From: an uncultured bacterium | Lineage (GTDB): Bacteria; Patescibacteriota; Microgenomatia; UBA1400; UBA12108 | Assembly (NCBI GenBank): GCA_903945195.1 | Contig: CAJAUT010000019.1 | Coordinates: forward strand, 1 to 63,845 | Reading direction: 5' to 3' | DNA: 63,845 bases | In this document: in pieces, positions 2,692 to 61,215 of the stretch | Layout: each line of letters starts with the position of its first letter | How positions within the stretch are numbered: position 1 is the first letter of the stretch | Notes under the pieces: generated by a model | Told to the model about the DNA's origin: nothing | The model's input: the letters and a program-made list of their open reading frames with translations, nothing else | The model's database searches: none | Made by a program: the position numbers and the translations under genes

Positions 2692-3120
2692 ATGGGTTAT
2701 ACAAATAAAGAAATAATTTCAGATGCAGTGGCTTCTGGTGCAAGCGTCCTAGGATTAGTTGGAGATATTGTGTCTCAAACTGGATCTAGACATTCTCTTC
2801 CAGATTTTTACCAAGAGTCAGCTGGTAGCTTCGGTTTTCCATGGCTCATAGTTGTAGGTTCTAACCTACTTGGTGAAGCATGCATAGACAATGGTACTAA
2901 AAATAACAATCAAAAAATGGTAAATACAGGTCATCAATTAAAAGGAATAGGATTAGGTTTAGCTATCGGTTTAGCGTTCATGGTTGAAGCCCAATTTATC
3001 AATCGTCCAGAATTATGGCAAGAAAACGCTCCAGACATGATCGTAGGATTGATTGCTATAACAATAGCAGCGAAAGTAAACAAAATGATCAATAAATCAT
3101 TGTTTCCCAACAACTCTTAA
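2692..3120 (+). CDS. hypothetical membrane protein
   Basis: 142-aa ORF divergent from 2275-2655 with hydrophobic Gly-rich segments. No motif recognised. Confidence 0.45.
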   Translation: MGYTNKEIISDAVASGASVLGLVGDIVSQTGSRHSLPDFYQESAGSFGFPWLIVVGSNLLGEACIDNGTKNNNQKMVNTGHQLKGIGLGLAIGLAFMVEAQFINRPELWQENAPDMIVGLIAITIAAKVNKMINKSLFPNNS

Positions 3121-3155
3121 TCGTATTTTAATCTCCTCGTGCTAAACTATTTCTC

Positions 3156-4526
3156 ATGGACAGCTTTACTTTGGTTATTTTTGGCATCACAAGCAATCTA
3201 GCTCAGATCAAGCTCATCCCTACCCTCTACGATCTAGTCGCAGGCGGTGCCATAGACTCTGATTTCTCAGTCATCGGAGTAGGTCGCACACCCATGGACC
3301 AATCTCAGTTCAATAGCTTTATCTCAAAGACCTTGCGCACCCCCAATCGCCACCACACACACTCTATAGATGGAAAAATTGAATCAACTCTGCTAACCAA
3401 ACTACATTACCTCCCAGCCGACCTCACAGATCCAAAAAGTTATGAGCAACTCAAAAACAAAATCACTACCCTAAGACACAAAAATCTCATGATCTATTTG
3501 GCCACCTTCCCCTCCCTCTACAGCACTATCTTCAACGAACTCCACTCTGCAGGTCTAACTACTTCATCTGTAGATTCCTGGACTCGTGTCATGATCGAAA
3601 AGCCAATTGGCTCCGATAGATCATCTGCCGCCGAAGTAAACAATTTGATCACCAAATATTTCAAGGAAAATCAGATCTTTAGACTAGATCACTATCTAGG
3701 AAAAGAAACTCTTCAAAACATTCTTACTTTTAGATTTGGCAATGGCATCCTCGAGCCTCTCATGACCAGTGAGCATATAGATCATATCGAAGTTACGGCC
3801 AGCGAAGATTTTGGCATTGGCAGTCGTGGTAGCTACTACGACCAAAATGGAGCCATCAAAGATGTTGGTCAAAATCATCTACTGCAAATGATTGCCCTAG
3901 CCACCATGGACAAGCCTACAGAGATGTCGAGTGAAGCGATCACCAAAGAGCGAGTCAAAGTATTACAAAACCTAGTTTGTGATCCTAGTTCTCTAGTAAC
4001 CGGACAATATGAGGGATATCTAACAGAAAAAGACGTAGCTCCAAACTCTACGGAAGAAACTTATTTTTCATTCAAAACTATGTTAAACACCGATCGCTTC
4101 CGCGGTGTCCCTATCTATGTCCGAGGTGGTAAATTTCTGGCTCGCACCGCCACCGAAGTTGCGATAATCTTCAAAGATTCTCCAAATGTCCTGATCTATC
4201 GCATCCAACCAAATGAAGGAATCGTGTTAAAAATCATGACCAAAAAACCAGGCCATACACTGGAACTAGAAGAATCCTATATGCAATTTTGCTATCCACA
4301 TGATGTAGATTTGCCAGATGCCTACGAAAAACTCATCATCGATGCGCTCCGTGGCGACCAGACTTATTTCAACGATACAAATGAGGTAGACGCACAGTGG
4401 GCCTTTACCGACCCACTCATTGAGGCCAAACACGGTATGACCCCTGCCATCTATGCCAAAGGTTCTTGGGGACCAAAAGACGATATCAACTGGCTCGAAC
4501 CCTCAACAGCCTTTTGTTCAATCTAA
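3156..4526 (+). CDS. zwf: glucose-6-phosphate 1-dehydrogenase
   Basis: Carries the G6PD signatures EKPIG and FRLDHYLGKE. The 456-aa length fits. Confidence 0.92.
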   Translation: MDSFTLVIFGITSNLAQIKLIPTLYDLVAGGAIDSDFSVIGVGRTPMDQSQFNSFISKTLRTPNRHHTHSIDGKIESTLLTKLHYLPADLTDPKSYEQLKNKITTLRHKNLMIYLATFPSLYSTIFNELHSAGLTTSSVDSWTRVMIEKPIGSDRSSAAEVNNLITKYFKENQIFRLDHYLGKETLQNILTFRFGNGILEPLMTSEHIDHIEVTASEDFGIGSRGSYYDQNGAIKDVGQNHLLQMIALATMDKPTEMSSEAITKERVKVLQNLVCDPSSLVTGQYEGYLTEKDVAPNSTEETYFSFKTMLNTDRFRGVPIYVRGGKFLARTATEVAIIFKDSPNVLIYRIQPNEGIVLKIMTKKPGHTLELEESYMQFCYPHDVDLPDAYEKLIIDALRGDQTYFNDTNEVDAQWAFTDPLIEAKHGMTPAIYAKGSWGPKDDINWLEPSTAFCSI

Positions 4527-8704: not shown

Positions 8705-9304
8705 CTACTTTAAAGTTTCTTCGTAATCTTTATCAGCCTGCATTTCATTCTCGATCAATTTACGCAAAAATACAGCTCTTGGAATTCGTTTTTTCTGAGC
8801 TACCCAATCTAGATATCTTCCAATTTGCGGAGAGATGAAAAAGTTAAACCTTACATCTTGCGTAGCCAAAGCATAATCAAAAGCATTTGCCAAAACTTGC
8901 TCGAGATCATATGTAGTATAAGGCAGGATAGTCAATTTATCGTCTACCCTTCCCCTAAGAAAAAATGGATCTCTGCCAGATTTATACAATGCAATCACTG
9001 GCTTACCTAAATCTAGGGCATATGTGAGCTCATGACCTACATTCGCCGTGGAAGGATACGAAGTCTCAACGACTACAACATCCGCCTCTCTTACTTTTGA
9101 GATAGATTCTTTATACCACTCTTCTCTTTTCTTTTGATCTTCTACAAAATTGGCAGTGTCATGTTTTTTATCAAATAAAGTTCCAGAATAAACTGTATAA
9201 CCTCTATCATCTAAAACCTTTTTAATACGGTTGTAGAATTCACTCAGCTCACTTGCCTGAGAGTGTGATGCAACAAAAGCTACTTTCATATTATTTTCCT
9301 CCAA
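8705..9304 (-). CDS. nucleoside 2-deoxyribosyltransferase-like domain protein with ribbon-helix-helix-like tail
   Basis: The block ADVVVVETSYPSTANVGHELTYALDLGKPVIALY matches the NDT/Rcl-like pattern and is paralogous to the N-terminus of 30818-31927. The C-terminal RFNFFISPQIGRYLDWVAQKKRIPRAVFLRKLIENE looks RHH-like. Confidence 0.55.
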   Translation of the reverse strand: MEENNMKVAFVASHSQASELSEFYNRIKKVLDDRGYTVYSGTLFDKKHDTANFVEDQKKREEWYKESISKVREADVVVVETSYPSTANVGHELTYALDLGKPVIALYKSGRDPFFLRGRVDDKLTILPYTTYDLEQVLANAFDYALATQDVRFNFFISPQIGRYLDWVAQKKRIPRAVFLRKLIENEMQADKDYEETLK

Positions 9305-9306
9305 TA

Positions 9307-9819
9307 TCAGTATTCTATCAGATTATTAAATTCTTCAATTATTTCAACATCTGATTTGTCTATATTTCGTAAAACTTTATGAGGGATTTTTGGAGCTTCA
9401 AATTCAGCCCATACAAACTCAAAAACATTCTCATCTACTACATGGTCTTCTTTTTTCATTCTCTTGCGCATTCTTTCGAAGGCAATATCTCTAGATGCAT
9501 GGATCATAATATACTCAATTTGAGAATCAAAATATTTCATAAATTCTGATCTATTTTTTTCTTTTGTAAATGCCTCAGCAATCACCAAATCTTTAGAGCT
9601 ATTAGTAGACAACATATGCTGGACTGTCATTATCAGTTTTTTTACAAATCTATCTCTCACAGTCTGATCATACTTACCACTCTCTAGCAGATATCGAAGC
9701 TCATCGTCATTTGAATATATCGTGTCCGCATCAAAAAAATGCCACTTTTTATGCTTGGCAAGCAATCCTCCGATATAAGTCTTGCCTACCCCGGGTGGAC
9801 CAAAAAGCACATATATCAT
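9307..9819 (-). CDS. P-loop kinase (gluconokinase/shikimate-kinase-like)
   Basis: Walker A GPPGVGKT followed by FFDADTIYS...DQTVRDRF, a layout seen in gluconokinase-type small kinases. Confidence 0.65.
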   Translation of the reverse strand: MIYVLFGPPGVGKTYIGGLLAKHKKWHFFDADTIYSNDDELRYLLESGKYDQTVRDRFVKKLIMTVQHMLSTNSSKDLVIAEAFTKEKNRSEFMKYFDSQIEYIMIHASRDIAFERMRKRMKKEDHVVDENVFEFVWAEFEAPKIPHKVLRNIDKSDVEIIEEFNNLIEY

Positions 9820-30817: not shown

Positions 30818-31927
30818 TTACACGATCTCGTGCTTTTTGAGAGCTTCTATCACCTTATCATGCACTTTCTCTATAGAGAGCAGCTTACCTTTGGAGTCGA
30901 CACACTTGATCACTTCCCAGTGCTTATTCTTTTTAGCTAGTTCCAGGTATAGTGACAGGACCTCTTTTTGGTAAGCCACATTGGCTTCGTTTATATCCTT
31001 TTTCTTGCCTGCTACATAGTCTCGACTAGCTTTTTGATCTATCAGTTTCTGACTGATCTCTACAGGCACATAGAGAAATAGCACTAGATCCTCTTTTGGT
31101 AGTTTGTGTTCTTTGTACTCCATGTCATAAAGCCATTTGATAAACTCTTCTCTTTTTTCTTTATCCACCCGAGCAGTCTGGAAAGCCATAGAACTAGTGG
31201 TATACCTGTTTGCCACCACCGTATTGCCTTCTTCTAGCCAGTCCACTATCTCATCACGTGCCGTCAGACGATCCATAGCGTAGAAAAGAGATGTCAGATA
31301 AGGACTCGAGCTTTCTAAACTGCCAAACTCACCAGATAGGTAGCGGCCCACCATCTGACCATGGAACGAGGTGTAATATCGAGGGAAATCTATATATTTA
31401 TTGCGGATATTGTTTGAGTCTAGGTATTTTAGCAGTAGCTCTGTCTGGGTACCTTTTCCAGATCCATCAGTCCCATCTATCACCACTAGCTTGCCCTTGC
31501 GCTTCGCCATCGAGACAAAATAGTCCATGTTTTTCTTGAGGACGGTCTTGATATTGCCCTTACTATAATGAGCTACGTACAATTCTGGATGACCTTCAAT
31601 CATCATGGGTAGTGGCATCGCAGCCTCTTTGTAATAAAGGGCTAAGACTTGTTTACCATGATTCAATGCATATTCAATAAGGAATGCTGTTCCCCAACTT
31701 GGCTTTGTAACCTCAGCAATCATAAAATCAGCTTGATCTATCAAGATGGTTTCTCTTTTATACAAACTTTTCGCCGACAATCCATCTCCAAGTTCTGTAT
31801 CAGGATCTATCACATGAGGATTTACTATAGAGTGTCCTAGCTTCTCCAAATTTGCTACAACTTCCTGATATAGAGGAAGTAATGATCTATCAAATTGAAA
31901 AGACGCACCAAAATATGCTTTCATCAC
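30818..31927 (-). CDS. tmk: fusion: nucleoside 2-deoxyribosyltransferase-like domain + thymidylate kinase
   Basis: The N-terminal ADFMIAEVTKPSWGTAFLIEYALNHGKQVLALYY block is NDT/Rcl-like. The C-terminal half has dTMP-kinase motifs: P-loop VVIDGTDGSGKGTQ and the DR motif (AMDRL). Confidence 0.8.
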   Translation of the reverse strand: MMKAYFGASFQFDRSLLPLYQEVVANLEKLGHSIVNPHVIDPDTELGDGLSAKSLYKRETILIDQADFMIAEVTKPSWGTAFLIEYALNHGKQVLALYYKEAAMPLPMMIEGHPELYVAHYSKGNIKTVLKKNMDYFVSMAKRKGKLVVIDGTDGSGKGTQTELLLKYLDSNNIRNKYIDFPRYYTSFHGQMVGRYLSGEFGSLESSSPYLTSLFYAMDRLTARDEIVDWLEEGNTVVANRYTTSSMAFQTARVDKEKREEFIKWLYDMEYKEHKLPKEDLVLFLYVPVEISQKLIDQKASRDYVAGKKKDINEANVAYQKEVLSLYLELAKKNKHWEVIKCVDSKGKLLSIEKVHDKVIEALKKHEIV

Positions 31928-31969: not shown

Positions 31970-33076
31970 CTATATCGGAAAACCACCTTTTGCCGCCCCG
32001 CTACCCCACAACTGCATAGCTTTACGCTGGCTCGGTGGTAGGTTTCGTACAAGGATACTATTTGACCAATCCGCGTGGTATGGACTCATAGGACTCACGA
32101 CCTCTCGTTCCCTCATCTTGGATTTTTGCCAATAATCCGCATCATTCACACTTAATCCATATCTCCAGGGATGATAACGGAAAAATTCAGGTTTTTGCCA
32201 AGTATAATTCACTCCAGGGGAAAAAATGCCTTCCGTACGAGATGGCCGCATAACCATTTGTTTGCGTTTTAAGATATATCCCATCCTTTCAGTCATAAAC
32301 GACTCAAACTCCTCCATATCCAAATGCTGTGATAATCGCTCAAATCGAGAACTAGGATGACCGATACTATTTGCCCAATACTCCGCCTTCAACTCACGGG
32401 GATCGCTTCCCCAATCATATCTCTCCTTACTTTTACCTGGTCTTCCTACAGCAAATGCTCTATATGGCAAATGCATATCTCGACTATTAAATGCCAAGAA
32501 ATTATTCAAATATCTCTGTCTCCATCGCTCAGCGCTTGTTGTTAATTCCTCCCTACTATTTGGACAACCAACTAACTCTTCGTAGACTCGATCCCCCGCC
32601 AAATACAAAGAGGTGAAGATACTTCCTAAAGGTTTTAGTGTCACATCAGCAGATTCAAGTGCATTTTGCCAACTTTTGTCCAACAAACTGTTTAAAGTTG
32701 CCTGAAACAATACTCCTTGCACAAGTTCTATCATCCCAGGAGCCAACCAAAACCATTCTCCACTACCAAAAACTGTAGCATCAGTAACCTCAGCAAAAAG
32801 ACCAAGTTTTTTCAAAGTATATACCGCTGCCTCGTTAATGTCAGTAGCCATCGGGGTAATACGATTTTGTCTCATTTCTAAGGATTTTCGCGAATTACCA
32901 CCCGAACCAGCATCAATCACTATTCCTCTATCACCAAATACGGGATGAGGAGGCAACGCTTCAACCATCCACTCTATCGGAAAATCAGAGGTAGATAAGA
33001 TATCGGAAACTGGCATTTTTTCCCATATTCTACGTTCCAATAAAGCTGGATCATGTTCCTGTACACCTAACCCCAT
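31970..33076 (-). CDS. class I SAM-methyltransferase-like protein with long C-terminal extension
   Basis: Motif I-like IVIDAGSGGN followed by an acidic ATDIN. The roughly 170 C-terminal residues are W/R-rich and unrecognised. Confidence 0.4.
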   Translation of the reverse strand: MGLGVQEHDPALLERRIWEKMPVSDILSTSDFPIEWMVEALPPHPVFGDRGIVIDAGSGGNSRKSLEMRQNRITPMATDINEAAVYTLKKLGLFAEVTDATVFGSGEWFWLAPGMIELVQGVLFQATLNSLLDKSWQNALESADVTLKPLGSIFTSLYLAGDRVYEELVGCPNSREELTTSAERWRQRYLNNFLAFNSRDMHLPYRAFAVGRPGKSKERYDWGSDPRELKAEYWANSIGHPSSRFERLSQHLDMEEFESFMTERMGYILKRKQMVMRPSRTEGIFSPGVNYTWQKPEFFRYHPWRYGLSVNDADYWQKSKMREREVVSPMSPYHADWSNSILVRNLPPSQRKAMQLWGSGAAKGGFPI

Positions 33077-33103: not shown

Positions 33104-33742
33104 CTAGACCAATAATAGTCCTATATCATACACCGTCTGACAACTAGCATCTGACTTGTCGCTCTCCCCACCCACAAATATCGTCTGCATACCCACCGCT
33201 TTTGCCCCCTCTATATCTATATCCTCCCTATCCCCTACGTAGACTATCTCCTGTGGATTCATCTCTAGGCTCTCTATGGCCGCTAGAAAAGGCTGGGGAT
33301 CAGGCTTTACCCATCCCTGGTCATAACAGTATATTCTGGGGTCAAAATCATGGTAGTCTAGCCCCAGGTGAGTCATTTTGCGCTCTACCTGACTCCCACT
33401 ACCATTTGTTATCACAAACAATCTATACTTCTTTTTCAGTTCTGACATCATTTTAACTAGTTTGAGGTCTTTTGACACGTATTTATGTATTTCGACCTGG
33501 TCCCATACACTTTGAAATATTTTCTCCCCTTCAAGTCCAAAAGAGTTCAGAGTCATAGTGTTACTACGATACATCTCTCTACGCTTCAAGTATTCCTCGA
33601 CTATCTCATCTGGATCTTGGGAAAGTGCCTTGGCTGCTTTTTGGATAAGTATCTTGCCTATCTGCTGAGACATTGCTTCTGGCGCATGATAAAGGGTGCC
33701 ATCCACATCAAATCCGATTGCCCGTATGTTTTGAAAGCTCAT
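33104..33742 (-). CDS. HAD-superfamily hydrolase
   Basis: Motif I FDVDGTL, motif III/IV VGDREDIDIEGAKAVGM. Confidence 0.85.
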   Translation of the reverse strand: MSFQNIRAIGFDVDGTLYHAPEAMSQQIGKILIQKAAKALSQDPDEIVEEYLKRREMYRSNTMTLNSFGLEGEKIFQSVWDQVEIHKYVSKDLKLVKMMSELKKKYRLFVITNGSGSQVERKMTHLGLDYHDFDPRIYCYDQGWVKPDPQPFLAAIESLEMNPQEIVYVGDREDIDIEGAKAVGMQTIFVGGESDKSDASCQTVYDIGLLLV

Positions 33743-34414: not shown

Positions 34415-36592
34415 TCAACCGCACACACTATATCCGCACCCATAACACTTCTTACACCCTTCTTCTAGCGCCAGCTTATTTCCACACTCAGGGCAGCTTT
34501 CCTTACTCTGATTCTCTGGCTTTCTGGTCCTCTGATTTTCTGAGTTATCTGGTTGTCTGATCACTTTATTGGCTGATTGTCCGATATTGAGCACCTGCTC
34601 TCCCCTACTCTTGTCTCTATATACCGTGATCCCCTTACATTTTAGCTCTGCTGCCATCATGTAGGCACTCATCACATCTTCTACCGTTGCATCACTTGGC
34701 AGATTGATAGTTTTAGACACTGCATTATCTGTATACTTTTGGAAAGCTGCAAGCATCTCCACGTGAGTCTCTGGTTTTATATCCATCGCCGTCACAAACA
34801 CTTTGCGTATTTTTTCTGGGATTACTGTTACCCCCATTACACTCCCTGTACGAGCTATCTCGTCCATGAGGTCGCTGGAATAAAGTCCATTGACATGTTT
34901 GATCGCTTTTACTAGATCGCTGTTTACTTCTGGCAGGTTGTATTGCCCCATAGATTTGCGGAAATATGCCAGTGCAAAATGTGGCTCTATTCCTGAGCTT
35001 GCCCCAGCCATCATCGAGATCGTACCAGTAGGCGCGATCGTGATCACAGTCGCGTTGCGGAAGTGTTTGTAGCCCTTTTTCTGCCACAGACTGCCTTTAA
35101 AGTTGGGGAAGTTCCCTTTTTCTTTACCTAGCTTCTCACTCTCTTCATGACCGATCTTTTGGATAAATTTCATCACTTCTTCTGCTAGTTTGAGAGCATC
35201 TTTAGAATCATAAGCCACATGTAGTTTCACGAGCATATCTGCCCATCCCATGACCCCAAGCCCAATCTTGCGATTGCCATGAACTGTATCAGCTACTTTT
35301 TTAAGAGGATATTCACACACTGATACCACATCATCTAGCATGCGCACCGCGATCCTTACTGTTTCTTCTAGTTTTTTGTAGTCAACTTTACTATCACCGT
35401 TTGTCCCTGCCACATGAGTTGCCAAATTGATCGAACCAAGGTTGCAAGCTTCATAAGAAAGTAGTGGCTGCTCGCCGCACAGATTTACTGTCTCAAGTGG
35501 CCCTACGTGTGGAGTAGGATTGTATTTTTCTATCTCATCGATAAAGATCAGTCCTGGGTCACCATTTTTCCAGGCCATCCGAGCTGCCTCTTCCATCAAA
35601 CCCCTAGCAGAGACTCGACTAGTCACCTTGCCAGTCCTTGGGTTTATCAGCTCCCACTCAGCATTTTTCTTGACTGCTTCGATAAATTTGTTTGTGACAG
35701 AAATCGAGATATTTATGTGAGGGAAATTGTTGCCAGATTCTTTGCAGTGGATAAAGTCTATGATGTCAGGGTGTGTGATCGGCATGGTCACCATGTTGCC
35801 ACTACGTCTCTTACCAGCCTGCAAGTAAATGTCTGAGGCATCATTTACCAGTTGCATCAGTGCCACAGGGCCAGCAGCAGCACCTGAAGTCGTTGAGACC
35901 TTGTCTCCCTTGGGGCGGATATGCCCAAAGGTAAATCCTACGGCTCCACCATATTTTTTGAGGATCGAACTTTCTTTGAGCGACTCAAAAATCCCCTCTA
36001 TATCATCGGGCATCGGCATCACAAAACAGTTGGCAAGCTGATTATTTTTTGTACCAGAATTGGCAAGCGTTCTACCTCCTGGGATAAACCTCTGCTCTTT
36101 CATCACGCCTGCAAATTTTTCTAGCCACACTTTACGTGTTTTTACAGGCTCTGCAGTTGCCAAGAATTTGGCTGTACGATCAAACATACCGCCAACAGTC
36201 TCTGCGACTTCCCCTTCTTCATCTCTCAGTAGATACTTTTCCTTGGCCACAGTTAGCGCATTTAGTGTCAGTCCCACATCATCATTTACCCCAAGCGCTC
36301 TCTTACTTGCTTCTACCTGTCTCTTCTTTTCTCTATTTAAAATGTAAGCTTTGGCTGTCTTGTAGTGACCTGACTCAAGTAGTACTCGCTCGACCATATC
36401 GCCAATTTCTGCCGAGGAAACTTTTTTGATACGACCATATTGTTTATCTAGTTTGGTTATCACTTGCTTGGCTAGACTCTGGGCTAGCTTGTCATCTGTC
36501 CCACCTACATCTTGGGCAGCCAAAAATATAGAATCGGCTATCTTTTCTTGCTCTAGTACTTGCTCTTTGTCACTGCGTTTGATTACTTTCAT
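34415..36592 (-). CDS. nrdJ: class II (adenosylcobalamin-type) ribonucleotide reductase with ATP-cone and C-terminal zinc ribbon
   Basis: N-terminal ATP-cone, active-site NLCGEQPL and a C-terminal CPECG...CKKCYGCG. 725 aa in a single chain. Confidence 0.9.
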   Translation of the reverse strand: MKVIKRSDKEQVLEQEKIADSIFLAAQDVGGTDDKLAQSLAKQVITKLDKQYGRIKKVSSAEIGDMVERVLLESGHYKTAKAYILNREKKRQVEASKRALGVNDDVGLTLNALTVAKEKYLLRDEEGEVAETVGGMFDRTAKFLATAEPVKTRKVWLEKFAGVMKEQRFIPGGRTLANSGTKNNQLANCFVMPMPDDIEGIFESLKESSILKKYGGAVGFTFGHIRPKGDKVSTTSGAAAGPVALMQLVNDASDIYLQAGKRRSGNMVTMPITHPDIIDFIHCKESGNNFPHINISISVTNKFIEAVKKNAEWELINPRTGKVTSRVSARGLMEEAARMAWKNGDPGLIFIDEIEKYNPTPHVGPLETVNLCGEQPLLSYEACNLGSINLATHVAGTNGDSKVDYKKLEETVRIAVRMLDDVVSVCEYPLKKVADTVHGNRKIGLGVMGWADMLVKLHVAYDSKDALKLAEEVMKFIQKIGHEESEKLGKEKGNFPNFKGSLWQKKGYKHFRNATVITIAPTGTISMMAGASSGIEPHFALAYFRKSMGQYNLPEVNSDLVKAIKHVNGLYSSDLMDEIARTGSVMGVTVIPEKIRKVFVTAMDIKPETHVEMLAAFQKYTDNAVSKTINLPSDATVEDVMSAYMMAAELKCKGITVYRDKSRGEQVLNIGQSANKVIRQPDNSENQRTRKPENQSKESCPECGNKLALEEGCKKCYGCGYSVCG
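34506..34562. repeat. DNA repeat inside nrdJ coding sequence (shared with epmA)
   Basis: 34508-34526 CTGATTCTCTGGCTTTCTG is identical to 46459-46477. The flanking TGAGTT..TTGTCTGAT is also shared. Encodes ..NSENQRTRKPENQ.. in the linker before the zinc ribbon. Confidence 0.7.
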
Positions 36593-59476: not shown

Positions 59477-59547
59477 AGGCCTGTCGTTCAGCGGTAGGAC
59501 TCTTCTCTCCAAAAGAAGTAACGAAGGTTCGATCCCTTCCGGGCCTG
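59477..59547 (+). tRNA. trnW: tRNA-Trp (anticodon CCA), no encoded CCA end
   Basis: Folded by hand: acceptor AGGCCTG/CGGGCCT, D arm GTTC-AGCGGTA-GGAC, anticodon arm CTTCT-CTCCAAA-AGAAG, T arm GAAGG-TTCGATC-CCTTC, discriminator G. Confidence 0.85.
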
Positions 59548-61215
59548 CAGAGTAGAAATTACAGGGGTTACGACACCTGTTTTTTCGTATATATCAATAC
59601 TTTTTTCAGGTTCTAGCGGATCTATAGTGTAAGCACGAATGTCGGCATTAGCTTTTCTTATAAACAAGTGCAAAATATCTTGATCCATCAATACTTTCCT
59701 ATCTAAGAGTTTTAGGTTCTGGCCTAAATTGCGGAATACTGTAGTCCTAGTCTCAAAGTCACCAGTATTAAAATCAGTCGCCGCCTTCACAGCAAAGTTA
59801 AATTTCTCCTCTGTATCACCCATAAAGTTCGCTACTCTTTGAGTTAGATCTGCTAATTTCTCTACAGCTTGCTTCTTGTTCTCCTCTAGCTCCCCTTTCC
59901 GTTTCATATATGCCTCAGTACTAATGATTTTACGATCCTTGTTCTCTGGTTGAGTATATTGCACCAACAAGCCGTCTAATTCTCTCTGAGTGCCACTAAC
60001 TACTTTTTGCAAGTTATCTAGAGCTTGAGCATTTACCGCTATCTGACCCTCTGTATTCGTCTTGAGTTGTTTGAGGACCCAATCACAGACTTTGGGTTTA
60101 ATCTCTAGCGACATCAAGTAATCATGAATTTGCGCCTCCAATGCCTCAATCCTAATCGTTTTCTGGGTACATTCATGATTCTTTTTCTTGGTACACGCCC
60201 CATAAATGTAATGTAGTCGTGTGGGGTCATCCATCTTATCTATTGCTAGTTCACACTTAGGACAAGTAGTTCTATTTCTTGAGGCAAACTTATATTTACA
60301 TCCACTACAGATCACTTGGTATTTCTCCTCTAGACAGATAGCGCTACCGCACTCTCCACACTGCATAAGCCCTCTGTACGGCAATGACACCGTTTTAGGC
60401 CGACTCTTACCCTTGTAGCCTAGTATCATCTGTATCTGATCGTATTCTCTATCTGTAATCATCGCTTCATGCCTACCCCTTACTCTCTGACCATCTGCTG
60501 TATAGATCCATCCCGCATAAAATTCGTTATGTAGGACCTTATAAAAATTACTTATGCCCATTGGCTTACCACCAATCCTTCTTGTCTTTGGCGTACGAAA
60601 TCCCCACTCCTCATTCAGTATCTCTAGAACTTTAGGAGGTGATTTGTAATTAATCACCATCTGTAATGCCCGTTTTATCAGATCAAATCGCTCAGGATCA
60701 TTAGCTAGAATGGGCTCACCAGTGGCAGGATCTTCTACAAACATATATCCTGAGTACTTCTTGATTGACCAACCTCGTAGTACCTTCTCCCTGTTTCCCC
60801 GCTTCACCGATTCGCTATTATCATCAGATGATTTTTTGCTCATAGCAAACTCAAGAGCCAGCATAAACTTACTATTGCCTGAGCCATCGGTGTACCCTGT
60901 AGGGGTCCTAATCCCCTTTATCACCCCAGAATCAAGCATGTAGATAATCATTCCCCCATCTAGGGAATTACGAGCTATACGGTTATATTGCCAAACCAAG
61001 ATTGCGTCAGCTTCCCCATCCTGCAATCTCTCCACCATCTTATTAAATTCTGGTCTCCCTACCTTGTAGGCACTCGCCGACTCTGTAAACCTATCTACTA
61101 TCTCCAGTCGTTCTTTTTGTGCGTATTCGTCCAACGCCCTCTTCTGAGCAGGCAAGGATAGCAACTGCCGATCCTCACTCTCCGTACTCTTGCGACAATA
61201 GATAAAATATTTCAT
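59488..61215 (-). CDS. large serine recombinase (integrase)
   Basis: N-terminal resolvase catalytic domain (YCRKSTESEDRQLLSLPAQ, catalytic Ser), a recombinase domain, a zinc ribbon (CGECGS...CSGC...CPKC) and a coiled coil. The last 20 codons are antisense to tRNA-Trp. Confidence 0.9.
   Translation of the reverse strand: MKYFIYCRKSTESEDRQLLSLPAQKRALDEYAQKERLEIVDRFTESASAYKVGRPEFNKMVERLQDGEADAILVWQYNRIARNSLDGGMIIYMLDSGVIKGIRTPTGYTDGSGNSKFMLALEFAMSKKSSDDNSESVKRGNREKVLRGWSIKKYSGYMFVEDPATGEPILANDPERFDLIKRALQMVINYKSPPKVLEILNEEWGFRTPKTRRIGGKPMGISNFYKVLHNEFYAGWIYTADGQRVRGRHEAMITDREYDQIQMILGYKGKSRPKTVSLPYRGLMQCGECGSAICLEEKYQVICSGCKYKFASRNRTTCPKCELAIDKMDDPTRLHYIYGACTKKKNHECTQKTIRIEALEAQIHDYLMSLEIKPKVCDWVLKQLKTNTEGQIAVNAQALDNLQKVVSGTQRELDGLLVQYTQPENKDRKIISTEAYMKRKGELEENKKQAVEKLADLTQRVANFMGDTEEKFNFAVKAATDFNTGDFETRTTVFRNLGQNLKLLDRKVLMDQDILHLFIRKANADIRAYTIDPLEPEKSIDIYEKTGVVTPVISTLQARKGSNLRYFFWREESYR

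Follow-up and report, generated by a model that had tools for sequence, protein, structure and literature searches.

A thymidylate kinase (Tmk) of an uncultured, ultra-small CPR bacterium (Woesebacteria-like) is fused to an N-terminal domain of the DNPH1 (Rcl) type in which leucine occupies the position of the catalytic glutamate. The gene lies in a 63,845-nt stretch of DNA (hereafter, the window) as a single uninterrupted ORF, as had been predicted for a nucleoside 2-deoxyribosyltransferase (NDT)-like domain and a dTMP kinase, and at least 82 CPR genomes at species level share the architecture. Judging from sequence conservation, we suggest, with about an even chance of being right, that the fusion is the main Tmk and that its N-domain, without covalent hydrolysis or transfer, is kept as a nucleotide-binding, dimerising module for the kinase.

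The ORF encodes 369 aa from a GTG at 31927, with the stop codon at 30818–30820 (Table 1). Translation more likely begins at the ATG at 31924, giving 368 aa as in the database protein P0001 (368 aa, 100% identical to the fusion product). The peptide ADFMIAEVTKPSWGTAFLIEYALNHGKQVLALYY represents aa 66–99 of the fusion protein. More than 120 database proteins with 70–100% identity carry the fusion ORF in full length, and it was detected in 29 species-level Woesebacteria/Microgenomates genomes (GTDB); a sister form is encoded by 53 Roizmanbacteria-type genomes (GTDB species). The occurrence of the same unbroken ORF in these independent proteins and genome loci, from many studies, therefore refutes an artefact in which two adjoining genes were merged by sequencing or assembly error or by frameshift, a reading with practically no probability and for which no favourable point was found. 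The fusion is thus not confined to this genome, and it is most likely old within the Microgenomates group. Literature searches gave no paper describing it, in agreement with the original prediction, which was aware of no characterisation. In the full-length AF2 model (pTM 0.78), four residues separate the last helix of the N-domain from the first kinase strand, which suggests a fixed inter-domain arrangement.

Table 1 Features of the fusion gene, its syntenic neighbours and the paralogous locus in the window
Feature	Position	Strand	Basis
Whole fusion gene	30818..31927	minus	ORF list; database homologue; upstream sequence
N-terminal DNPH1/Rcl-type domain, NDT superfamily, aa 1–145	31493..31927	minus	Pfam, Rcl match, AF2 + Foldseek
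Active-site helix motif PSWGTAFLIEYAL, aa 76–88	31664..31702	minus	Translation; Rcl alignment; invariance in homologues
PLPMMIE segment, aa 105–111, equivalent of the DNPH1 'helical extension'	31595..31615	minus	Translation; alignments
C-terminal dTMP kinase domain, M. tuberculosis-like type, aa 146–369	30821..31492	minus	PF02223, NF005923, 1g3u, Foldseek
Kinase P-loop GTDGSGKGT, aa 152–160	31448..31474	minus	Translation; aligned to Mtb TMPK GVDGAGKRT; invariant
HAD-IA phosphatase, syntenic neighbour	33104..33742	minus	Found upstream of the fusion gene at many sister loci
Class II (NrdJ) ribonucleotide reductase with ATP-cone, syntenic neighbour, upstream	34415..36592	minus	Pfam; TIGR02504; synteny
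Paralogue, DNPH1/NDT-like domain + conserved C-terminal tail	8705..9304	minus	PF05014, Rcl match, pairwise comparison
Small P-loop kinase-like protein (AAA_33/shikimate/gluconokinase-like), between recR and paralogue	9307..9819	minus	Pfam, NCBIfam, PDB, synteny

The N-domain is more precisely of the DNPH1/Rcl type than a classical NDT. Nuc_deoxyrib_tr (PF05014) matches aa 5–104 of the fusion with 36.7 bits (Pfam gathering score 28.8), a likeness to NDTs such as NDT/PTD of lactobacilli and BB0426 of Borrelia burgdorferi, which differ in being stand-alone enzymes that act on nucleosides and need a Glu nucleophile absent here. Among PDB sequences the N-domain matched rat/human Rcl/DNPH1 (E 2e-11), and NDT chains were absent from the matches even at E ≤ 10. 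When the N-domain was modelled by itself with AF2 (pLDDT 89.1), all of the top 50 Foldseek matches in PDB were DNPH1/Rcl chains (TM 0.67–0.81, E down to 1e-9), confirming the flavodoxin-like NDT fold anticipated for the N-terminal ~150 aa. DNPH1 (2'-deoxynucleoside 5'-phosphate N-hydrolase 1, a homodimeric dNMP/5-hydroxymethyl-dUMP N-glycosidase with shared active sites) is thus the best match both by sequence and by structure; it is an animal protein, unlike the kinase-fused bacterial (CPR) domain. The MilB/BlsM CMP (hydroxymethyl-CMP) N-glycosidases belong to the same superfamily and are weak PDB matches of the paralogue (E 0.14–0.19), but unlike the N-domain of the fusion they have their catalytic Glu intact, play their part in antibiotic biosynthesis and are not joined to kinases. 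Two other affiliations were rejected: a defence system (TIR/ThsB-like), for which PADLOC matches were weak (ThsB TIR-like at E 0.0012 for the paralogue, PDC-M51B for the kinase part of the fusion), and a phage origin or hypermodified-thymidine pathway, for which no relatives were found in IMG/VR or among GenBank phages.

The claim of a complete dTMP kinase likewise stands. Thymidylate_kin (PF02223) matches aa 150–344 with 73.3 bits (cut-off 27), the M. tuberculosis TMPK (PDB 1g3u) aligns with the C-domain end to end (E 2e-16), and the top Foldseek matches of the C-domain are TMPKs. The equivalog cut-offs of NCBIfam were not reached (NF005923, 139.3 vs 193; TIGR00041, 69.2 vs 83.25), though dTMP kinase models are nonetheless the best NCBIfam matches by a wide margin. 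GTDGSGKGT, DFPRYY, AMDR and the basic lid residues R302/K310 could be aligned to the M. tuberculosis enzyme and are invariant among 40 homologues; based on this invariant P-loop, FPRY, DR motif and lid, the fused kinase looks functional. It differs from the M. tuberculosis type in its scores below the equivalog cut-offs, its GKGT P-loop and the extra 145-aa N-terminal domain. A second Tmk was not found within the 64-kb window.

The catalytic triad of DNPH1 is Y24/D80/E104, with E104Q inactivating, its phosphate ligands are S98 and S128', the latter from the partner subunit, and its third helix forms the dimer interface (PMC10603095). In a gapless alignment of PSWGTAFLIEYAL with PSLGVGYELGRAV, L83 of the window protein falls on rat E93/human E104, S77 corresponds to human S98, and E85 occupies the position of G106. 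The register is anchored by the protein P0139 (PSLGVGTEIEYALN), in which both Glu residues are present in the same register. Shifting the register so that E85 would match the nucleophile was rejected on this ground and because S77 and G91-K92 lie as far apart as S87 and G101-K102 of Rcl. The glutamate nucleophile of catalytic DNPH1 and NDT proteins is accordingly replaced by Leu83 in the fusion, and P107 stands in place of the phosphate-binding Ser128', so of the DNPH1 phosphate-ligand pair S77 is invariant yet its partner position is Pro throughout the clade. None of L83, E85 and P107 varies among 120 homologues or across the 26 Woesebacteria-type loci that could be read.

The invariant residues of the N-domain gather at active-site equivalents. 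These otherwise unchanged pocket positions are Tyr5 (human Y24), His38 (H56), probably the acidic Glu59, Ser77, the loop at the helix N-terminus (76–82) and the MMI-x-G extension (M109-I110-G112), together with the new Glu85. Glu59 falls at human D80 in the gapless phmmer alignment (MAFFT displaces this segment by two residues), and an Arg-Glu at the D80 region is conserved in both fusion clades. Where DNPH1 has Glu55, the window protein itself has Pro37.

The Roizmanbacteria-type fusions (uncharacterised; for example, MFZO01000031 and LBST01000018) share the domain order, the linker and the phylum-level group with the window gene, at ~40–45% full-length identity. They differ in keeping the canonical PS[LH]GVGxE-I-V motif and the Ser: Glu was retained in 35 of 37 readable loci, and each of these 35 carries Ser or Thr where DNPH1 has Ser128', by which they look catalytically competent. 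They also lack the topA-nrdJ-HAD neighbourhood that surrounds the window gene. Among standalone DNPH1-like relatives, P0127 and P0132 are without the canonical Glu, have the Pro and carry Asp at the +2 position (the E85 equivalent); in the remaining standalone proteins without Glu, the Tyr is gone too. Such Glu-less standalone proteins arise repeatedly, therefore non-hydrolytic members are a recurring theme of the family.

The genes around the fusion were also compared. NrdJ (TIGR02504 score of 612.7 bits, cut-off 399.95) is a conserved neighbour, with synteny in loci L001–L022, and the HAD phosphatase showed similarity to YjjG and pyrimidine 5'-nucleotidase below threshold only. A thymidine kinase (TK) gene is located directly downstream of the fusion in eight sister loci, and P0129 is a triple fusion with TK as the third domain. 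A rare, independent fusion with reversed domain order is found between thyX and dut in a dcd-thyX-dut cluster; a genome scan for this reversed-order form yielded nothing but relatives with Tmk alone, from MAGs of Paceibacterota and Saccharibacteria. The Rosetta-stone link proposed originally was thus borne out: the fusions in 29 + 53 genomes, the reversed-order fusion and the TK adjacency and triple fusion tie DNPH1-like domains solidly to thymidylate metabolism. The DNPH1-like domain is also met with thymidine kinase, thyX, dut and dcd.

The paralogue predicted elsewhere in the window is real (PF05014, 30.0 bits with the cut-off at 28.8; Rcl, E 2.8e-6; 26% identity to the fused domain, pairwise E 6e-9). 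Its start is probably the ATG at 9289. It keeps the Glu in VGHEL, with Phe replacing Tyr, and the catalytic Glu is variable across its family, whose defining feature is a conserved tail of ~50 aa at the C-terminus (8705–8869). Pfam gave no match for the single tail sequence of the paralogue; with the profile of the tail family, the only meaningful matches in PDB were the CopG regulator 7by2 (E 0.023) and YiiF 2k5j (E 0.61), by which the tail resembles, and may be, a ribbon-helix-helix (CopG/Arc/MetJ) DNA-binding domain. The paralogue is not considered part of the same functional unit as the fusion.

The original prediction also held that the pairing of an NDT-like domain and a kinase occurs twice in the window. 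The paralogue and an adjoining P-loop ORF do exist, but the second pair is not comparable, as the kinase is generic and the adjacency is limited to one narrow lineage. The best matches of the P-loop protein are AAA_33, AAA_18 and SKI, with cytidylate/adenylate kinase models at E 0.01–0.2 only, and its homologues are named gluconate kinase, shikimate kinase or AAA ATPase in their sources; a nucleotide kinase is thus unsupported by Pfam, NCBIfam, PDB and source names. It adjoins the paralogue in five of seven close relatives, whereas 25 loci that are more distant all lack this adjacency, and this confinement to close relatives led us to reject a conserved paralogue-kinase operon. The conserved neighbour of the paralogue is recR. 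An unrelated 340-aa ORF takes the place of the P-loop gene in loci L033 and L036, and the P-loop gene is absent from Collierbacteria and Shapirobacteria loci. The P-loop protein is a lineage-specific insertion.

What the N-domain does beside the kinase can be approached from its conservation. Given that Leu83 and Pro107 do not vary within the clade, the window protein is unlikely to carry out deoxyribosyl transfer or covalent hydrolysis in the manner of DNPH1. Its pocket is invariant all the same, and this speaks for a ligand-binding/regulatory module or for rewired chemistry. In the reading we favour, the gene product would be the main thymidylate kinase of the bacterium (dTMP + ATP -> dTDP), built as one rigid two-domain protein. 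The Roizmanbacteria-type N-domain, with Glu and Ser kept, would probably be a dNMP N-glycosidase beside the kinase, serving thymidylate salvage or pool cleaning, and we infer that the ancestral state of the domain was catalytic. In the lineage of the window, the nucleophile Glu would have changed to L83 and Ser128' to P107 with the remaining pocket held invariant, and covalent (double-displacement) hydrolysis and deoxyribosyl transfer would have been given up. The domain probably persists as a nucleotide-binding, dimerising module that may gate, regulate or feed the kinase; conservation, including the very low omega given below, is what suggests that it probably binds or regulates through a ligand. 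One observation speaks against this reading: Tyr5 is strictly kept together with a conserved acid at the nucleophile +2 position (Glu in the fusions, Asp in P0127 and P0132), which is the pattern expected of rewired catalysis.

Such rewiring would make the N-domain an N-glycosidase in which the carboxylate has moved by two residues (E85), Ser128' has become Pro, and a (non-canonical) deoxynucleotide is hydrolysed in one step via a general base and water, without a covalent intermediate, so that the dNMP pool is cleaned or partitioned before the fused kinase. Beyond E85 and its Asp counterpart in the Glu-less, Pro-bearing relatives, the retention of Tyr5, Ser77, His38 and probably the acid at the Asp80 position is consistent with this, as is the very low omega of the N-domain (0.003, vs 0.006 for the kinase, from the one usable pair, the other 104 of 105 pairs being saturated at synonymous sites). 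That the module acts on thymidylate-related nucleotides is indicated by the sister fusions, which look catalytic, and by the thyX/dut/TK surroundings, and glycoside hydrolases such as GH97, in which relocation of the catalytic carboxylate accompanied a switch between retaining and inverting mechanisms, offer a precedent. Several points make this reading rather unlikely. A shift of two residues along an alpha-helix turns the side chain by ~200 degrees, away from the direction of E104, and since the helix is the dimer interface of DNPH1 (PMC10603095), E85 may be a mere interface residue. In addition, Leu at the nucleophile site occupies the room that water would need, and Pro37 takes the place of the water-activating Glu55.

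The N-domain could also be a purely structural relic, a scaffold by which the kinase dimerises or is stabilised, with no function in its pocket. The nucleophile and Ser128' are gone, DNPH1 and Tmk are both dimers, and the N-domain evolves somewhat faster (mean pairwise identity of 68%, vs 78% for the kinase). We consider this improbable, slightly more so than rewired chemistry, because the invariant residues are exactly those lining the pocket (Y5, S77, loop 76–82, E85, M109-I110-G112), where a mere scaffold would be expected to drift, and omega is as low as that of the kinase in the one informative pair.

The functional couple envisaged originally, in which the classical NDT/Rcl mechanism lets the N-domain exchange bases or hydrolyse dNMPs, with the product passed to the kinase, survived in part. 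The domain is a member of the superfamily, the fusion recurs and adjoins TK, and NDT-family enzymes do serve deoxynucleoside salvage in reduced genomes where nucleotide synthesis is limited, for example, B. burgdorferi BB0426 (PMC2764106). The proposed base exchange or hydrolysis feeding phosphorylation did not hold, as both the NDT and DNPH1 mechanisms need the Glu nucleophile for the covalent deoxyribosyl-enzyme, and its substitution inactivates DNPH1 (PMC10603095). With Leu at this position in the window protein and the whole clade, the classical mechanism is very improbable here, though it may well hold for the Glu-keeping Roizmanbacteria-type fusions.

CPR bacteria have no de novo nucleotide synthesis and depend on salvage, and thymidylate kinase is their essential gate to dTTP. 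The animal DNPH1 is a sanitiser that bars 5-hydroxymethyl-dUMP from DNA and a cancer-drug target; to our knowledge, its bacterial relatives are essentially unstudied. As a speculation to which we give little probability, the Microgenomates fusions could be a 'clean, then phosphorylate' device, in which the DNPH1-type domain keeps modified dUMP analogues (for example, 5-hydroxymethyl-dUMP from salvaged foreign DNA) from the kinase in DNA-scavenging CPR bacteria, the Woesebacteria form being a rewired DNPH1 that hydrolyses or captures them without a covalent intermediate. The presence of a DNPH1-type domain on Tmk in so many species suggests that thymidylate salvage includes a control or quality-check step which has gone unrecognised, and nature supplies a ready-made experiment on the role of the domain beside the kinase, in that one form has the nucleophile and the other lacks it. 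Should the form that lacks it be a binding module and nothing more, it would be an ordinary pseudoenzyme domain; should it be active, it would represent a new mechanism in the DNPH1 enzyme family.

The fusion is encoded by a single ORF in which both domains exceeded the curated, family-specific Pfam thresholds, with 36.7 bits at aa 5-104 for Nuc_deoxyrib_tr (PF05014; cut-off 28.8) and 73.3 bits at aa 150-344 for Thymidylate_kin (PF02223; cut-off 27). This bears out the original prediction of an NDT/Rcl-like domain joined to a dTMP kinase. Among PDB sequences, aa 1-145 matched Rcl/DNPH1 exclusively (E 2e-11 to 3e-8), with no classical NDT among the matches even at E <= 10. AF2 models were obtained for the isolated N-domain (pLDDT 89.1) and the full-length fusion (pLDDT 84.5, pTM 0.78); Foldseek returned only DNPH1/Rcl chains as its top 50 hits for the former (TM 0.67-0.81) and thymidylate kinases for the latter. 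Within the NDT superfamily the N-domain is of the DNPH1 (Rcl) type, a sharper assignment than the name first given to it. The C-terminal part aligned end to end with the M. tuberculosis (Mtb) thymidylate kinase (E 2e-16), and the P-loop GTDGSGKGT, the FPRY segment, the D-R motif and the basic residues of the lid align to the Mtb enzyme and are invariant among homologues. The dTMP kinase is complete, as predicted. The domain scored under the NCBIfam strict equivalog cut-offs, but nothing suggests inactivity. No second Tmk was found within the 64-kb window.

Coordinates of the features discussed in the text
Feature	Position	Strand	Remark
Fusion ORF, uninterrupted	30818..31927	-	369 aa from GTG; ATG at 31924, one codon on, gives 368 aa, the database form
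368-aa ORF directly upstream of fusion	31970-33076	-	
DNPH1/NDT-like paralogue	8705..9304	-	
C-terminal tail of paralogue	8705-8869	-	
Small P-loop protein, AAA_33 / shikimate / gluconokinase type	9307..9819	-	
tRNA-Trp (CCA)	59477-59548	+	the window's only tRNA
575-aa ORF	59488-61215	-	3' end overlapped by tRNA-Trp by about 60 bases
Triple fusion P0129	194-1924		locus L120; metagenomic, 576 aa
Reversed fusion P0277	3227-4327		locus L119
Unrelated 340-aa ORF in place of P-loop gene	2968-3990		locus L033; also in L036

The overlap with the tRNA indicates that the 575-aa ORF call may be too long.

To profile the distribution of the fusion, 5.8 billion proteins were searched and 1240 matches obtained. 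The best 120 of these were all full-length fusions with 70-100% identity to the window protein, and the named entries among them were 'Candidatus Woesebacteria' or called dTMP kinase. Among GTDB species representatives, the Woesebacteria-type fusion (the clade of the window protein) was detected at 29 loci (53-88% identity) in Woesebacteria, the Microgenomates group and Patescibacteria. The N-domain alone had 515 relatives among 1.84 billion cluster representatives, most of them stand-alone proteins of ~140 aa and several joined to Tmk. A search with an alignment of the more distant Tmk fusions recovered a second, Roizmanbacteria-type clade at 53 species-level loci, most of which are Candidatus Roizmanbacteria and one WWE3; full-length identity to the window protein is about 40-45%. 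The fusion is therefore found well beyond one genome; searches of phage collections yielded no relatives. The title 'uncultured Pseudomonadales bacterium' or 'uncultured Gammaproteobacteria bacterium' is given to many MAG records with clear CPR/Microgenomates genes (L001, L003, L006, L008 and many of L062-L104), apparently because bulk third-party assemblies were mislabelled systematically.

In the double-displacement mechanism of DNPH1, the leaving base receives a proton from Asp80, and attack of Glu104 on C1' gives a covalent deoxyribose-phosphate ester; Tyr24 is the third member of the catalytic triad, the phosphate is bound by Ser98 and, across the dimer, by Ser128' of the partner subunit, and Glu55 and His56 assist (PMC10603095). 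Glu104 sits on the third helix, through which the dimer forms, and the E104Q change inactivates the enzyme (PMC10603095).

Human DNPH1 active-site residues and their counterparts in the window protein
Human DNPH1	Window protein	State
Y24	Y5	kept
H56	H38	kept
S98	S77	kept
D80	E59, in the alignment without gaps	probably kept as an acidic residue
E104 (nucleophile)	L83	lost
G106	E85	new Glu
S128'	P107	lost
E55	P37; Glu in most relatives	lost in window protein

The window protein aligned with Rcl over the third helix without gaps (PSWGTAFLIEYAL versus PSLGVGYELGRAV), and the register was anchored by the database protein P0139, in which both glutamates are present (PSLGVGTEIEYALN). L83, E85 and P107 were invariant in the best 120 of the 1240 homologues and in all 26 readable Woesebacteria-type loci. 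The canonical Glu was kept in 35 of the 37 readable Roizmanbacteria-type loci, and in all 35 the residue equivalent to Ser128' is Ser or Thr. Since the Glu nucleophile is present in the wider DNPH1-like family, the Leu is most probably a derived state. The N-domain thus shares the fold, the Tyr and Ser98 with catalytic DNPH1/NDT members and lacks the defining nucleophile and Ser128'. The nucleophile is also replaced (by Leu, Val or Met) in six stand-alone proteins, P0156, P0185, P0186, P0188, P0215 and P0225; the triad Tyr is Phe or His wherever their N-terminus is readable (all but P0215), and Ser128' is retained in 6/6. They make up another nucleophile-less subfamily, of a kind distinct from the fusions.

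Mean pairwise identity was 68% for the N-domain versus 78% for the kinase, and omega, from the sole pair unsaturated at synonymous sites, was 0.003 and 0.006, respectively. The invariant N-domain residues are the pocket-lining ones. These comparisons point to an N-domain that is under constraint and not decaying. We favour, at roughly an even chance of being right, a reading in which a main dTMP kinase carries a formerly catalytic, now non-hydrolytic module that preserves its pocket. The window protein would most likely be the lineage's main dTMP kinase, and its N-domain would descend from a catalytic DNPH1-like partner still found in Roizmanbacteria; it would bind a putative nucleotide-like ligand, dimerise, and gate or regulate the kinase. 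With a pTM of 0.78 and only a short helix-to-strand junction between them, the two domains seem to be in a fixed arrangement.

Rewired catalysis in the N-domain, the chief alternative, is rather unlikely. The acidic residue at +2 from the lost Glu is conserved (Glu in the fusions, Asp in stand-alone P0127 and P0132, which share the Leu/Trp and Pro changes), and Tyr5 is retained in the fusion and lost in the other stand-alone proteins without Glu. However, a side chain at +2 on a helix faces roughly the opposite way, DNPH1 dimerises through this helix, and the Leu occupies the site that a water molecule would need. A purely scaffolding N-domain fits poorly with the invariant pocket and is improbable. 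Base exchange or hydrolysis channelled into phosphorylation, as first proposed, is very improbable for the window protein, since without the nucleophile the known route would be closed to both NDT-type exchange and DNPH1-type hydrolysis; the model may well apply to the Roizmanbacteria-type fusions.

Around the window fusion the genes run topA - nrdJ (a class II RNR with an ATP-cone) - variable genes - HAD phosphatase - variable genes - fusion - sortase, as they do in most Woesebacteria-type loci. In eight Woesebacteria-type loci (L008, L009, L010, L013, L014, L015, L017 and L028) a thymidine kinase (TK) gene begins 6-10 bases past the fusion stop; in the window the downstream position is occupied by the sortase gene, and no TK was found. 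P0129, adjoining SHMT, is a triple fusion of DNPH1-like, Tmk and thymidine kinase domains. The reversed fusion (P0213/P0277) has an N-terminal Tmk and a C-terminal DNPH1-like domain with the canonical GVGYEIG motif (P0277). Its gene neighbourhood, dcd - thyX - fusion - dut, spans the whole dTTP branch; the fusion is rare, its protein cluster having 2 members, with Tmk-only relatives in Paceibacterota and Saccharibacteria MAGs. Because the fusion is conserved and these further architectures and neighbourhoods tie the domain to thymidylate metabolism, the predicted Rosetta-stone link holds, and is partly of independent origin. Other bacterial architectures (P0128, P0138, P0217, P0143 and P0237) include NTPase_I-T (DUF84, non-canonical NTPase) plus DNPH1-like, DNPH1-like plus SAM methyltransferase, and DNPH1-like domains duplicated in tandem; if catalytic members clean the nucleotide pool, the fusion to an NTPase would fit that role. 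The ORF directly upstream of the window fusion, whose VIDAGSGGN stretch recalls motif I of SAM methyltransferases, had no match in Pfam, NCBIfam or PADLOC, and in sister loci is either weakly conserved (25-72% identity) or missing at that position.

The pairing was also predicted to occur a second time, as adjacent genes. Pfam and sequence searches confirmed the paralogue, which keeps the Glu (VGHEL) and has Phe for Tyr. The neighbouring P-loop ORF had no significant nucleotide-kinase match and 95 homologues only; it adjoins the paralogue in just 5/7 close relatives and in 0/25 more distant loci, and its place is taken by an unrelated 340-aa ORF in L033 and L036. There is therefore no second couple of NDT and nucleotide kinase. 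In the paralogue family (~190 aa), the catalytic Glu is variable (GHEL, GHIL, GQEI, GYLI and others), and the best-conserved part is the C-terminal tail of ~45 aa (43 members, 32 loci; consensus DVRFNFFISPxIxxYLDWVxKxKxIPRSVYLRxLIExDM). The only meaningful PDB matches of the tail profile were ribbon-helix-helix proteins (CopG regulator 7by2, E 0.023; YiiF, E 0.61), suggesting that a domain which senses nucleotides may carry a DNA-binding tail and that the family could act as a transcription factor responding to nucleotides. Patescibacterial loci (L030-L061) carry 1-5 copies in tandem (five in L059), in the conserved context dnaX-ybaB-recR-paralogue...cysS. The recR-paralogue slot is variable between lineages and empty in Collierbacteria (L042).

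Among characterised proteins, the N-domain is closest to animal DNPH1/Rcl and the C-domain to Mtb-type TMPK, and the individual parts are already familiar. Full-text literature searches found no paper on a DNPH1-like/Tmk fusion, in line with the initial impression that it is uncharacterised, and databases annotate it solely as 'dTMP kinase' or 'hypothetical protein'. NDT-family enzymes serve salvage in reduced genomes, such as BB0426 of B. burgdorferi (PMC2764106). The fusion is a widespread uncharacterised CPR architecture whose DNPH1-like active site exists in two natural states; the N-domain of the window copy may be a pseudoenzyme domain, and the fusion hints that nucleotide-scavenging bacteria may have a step of quality control or regulation in thymidylate salvage.
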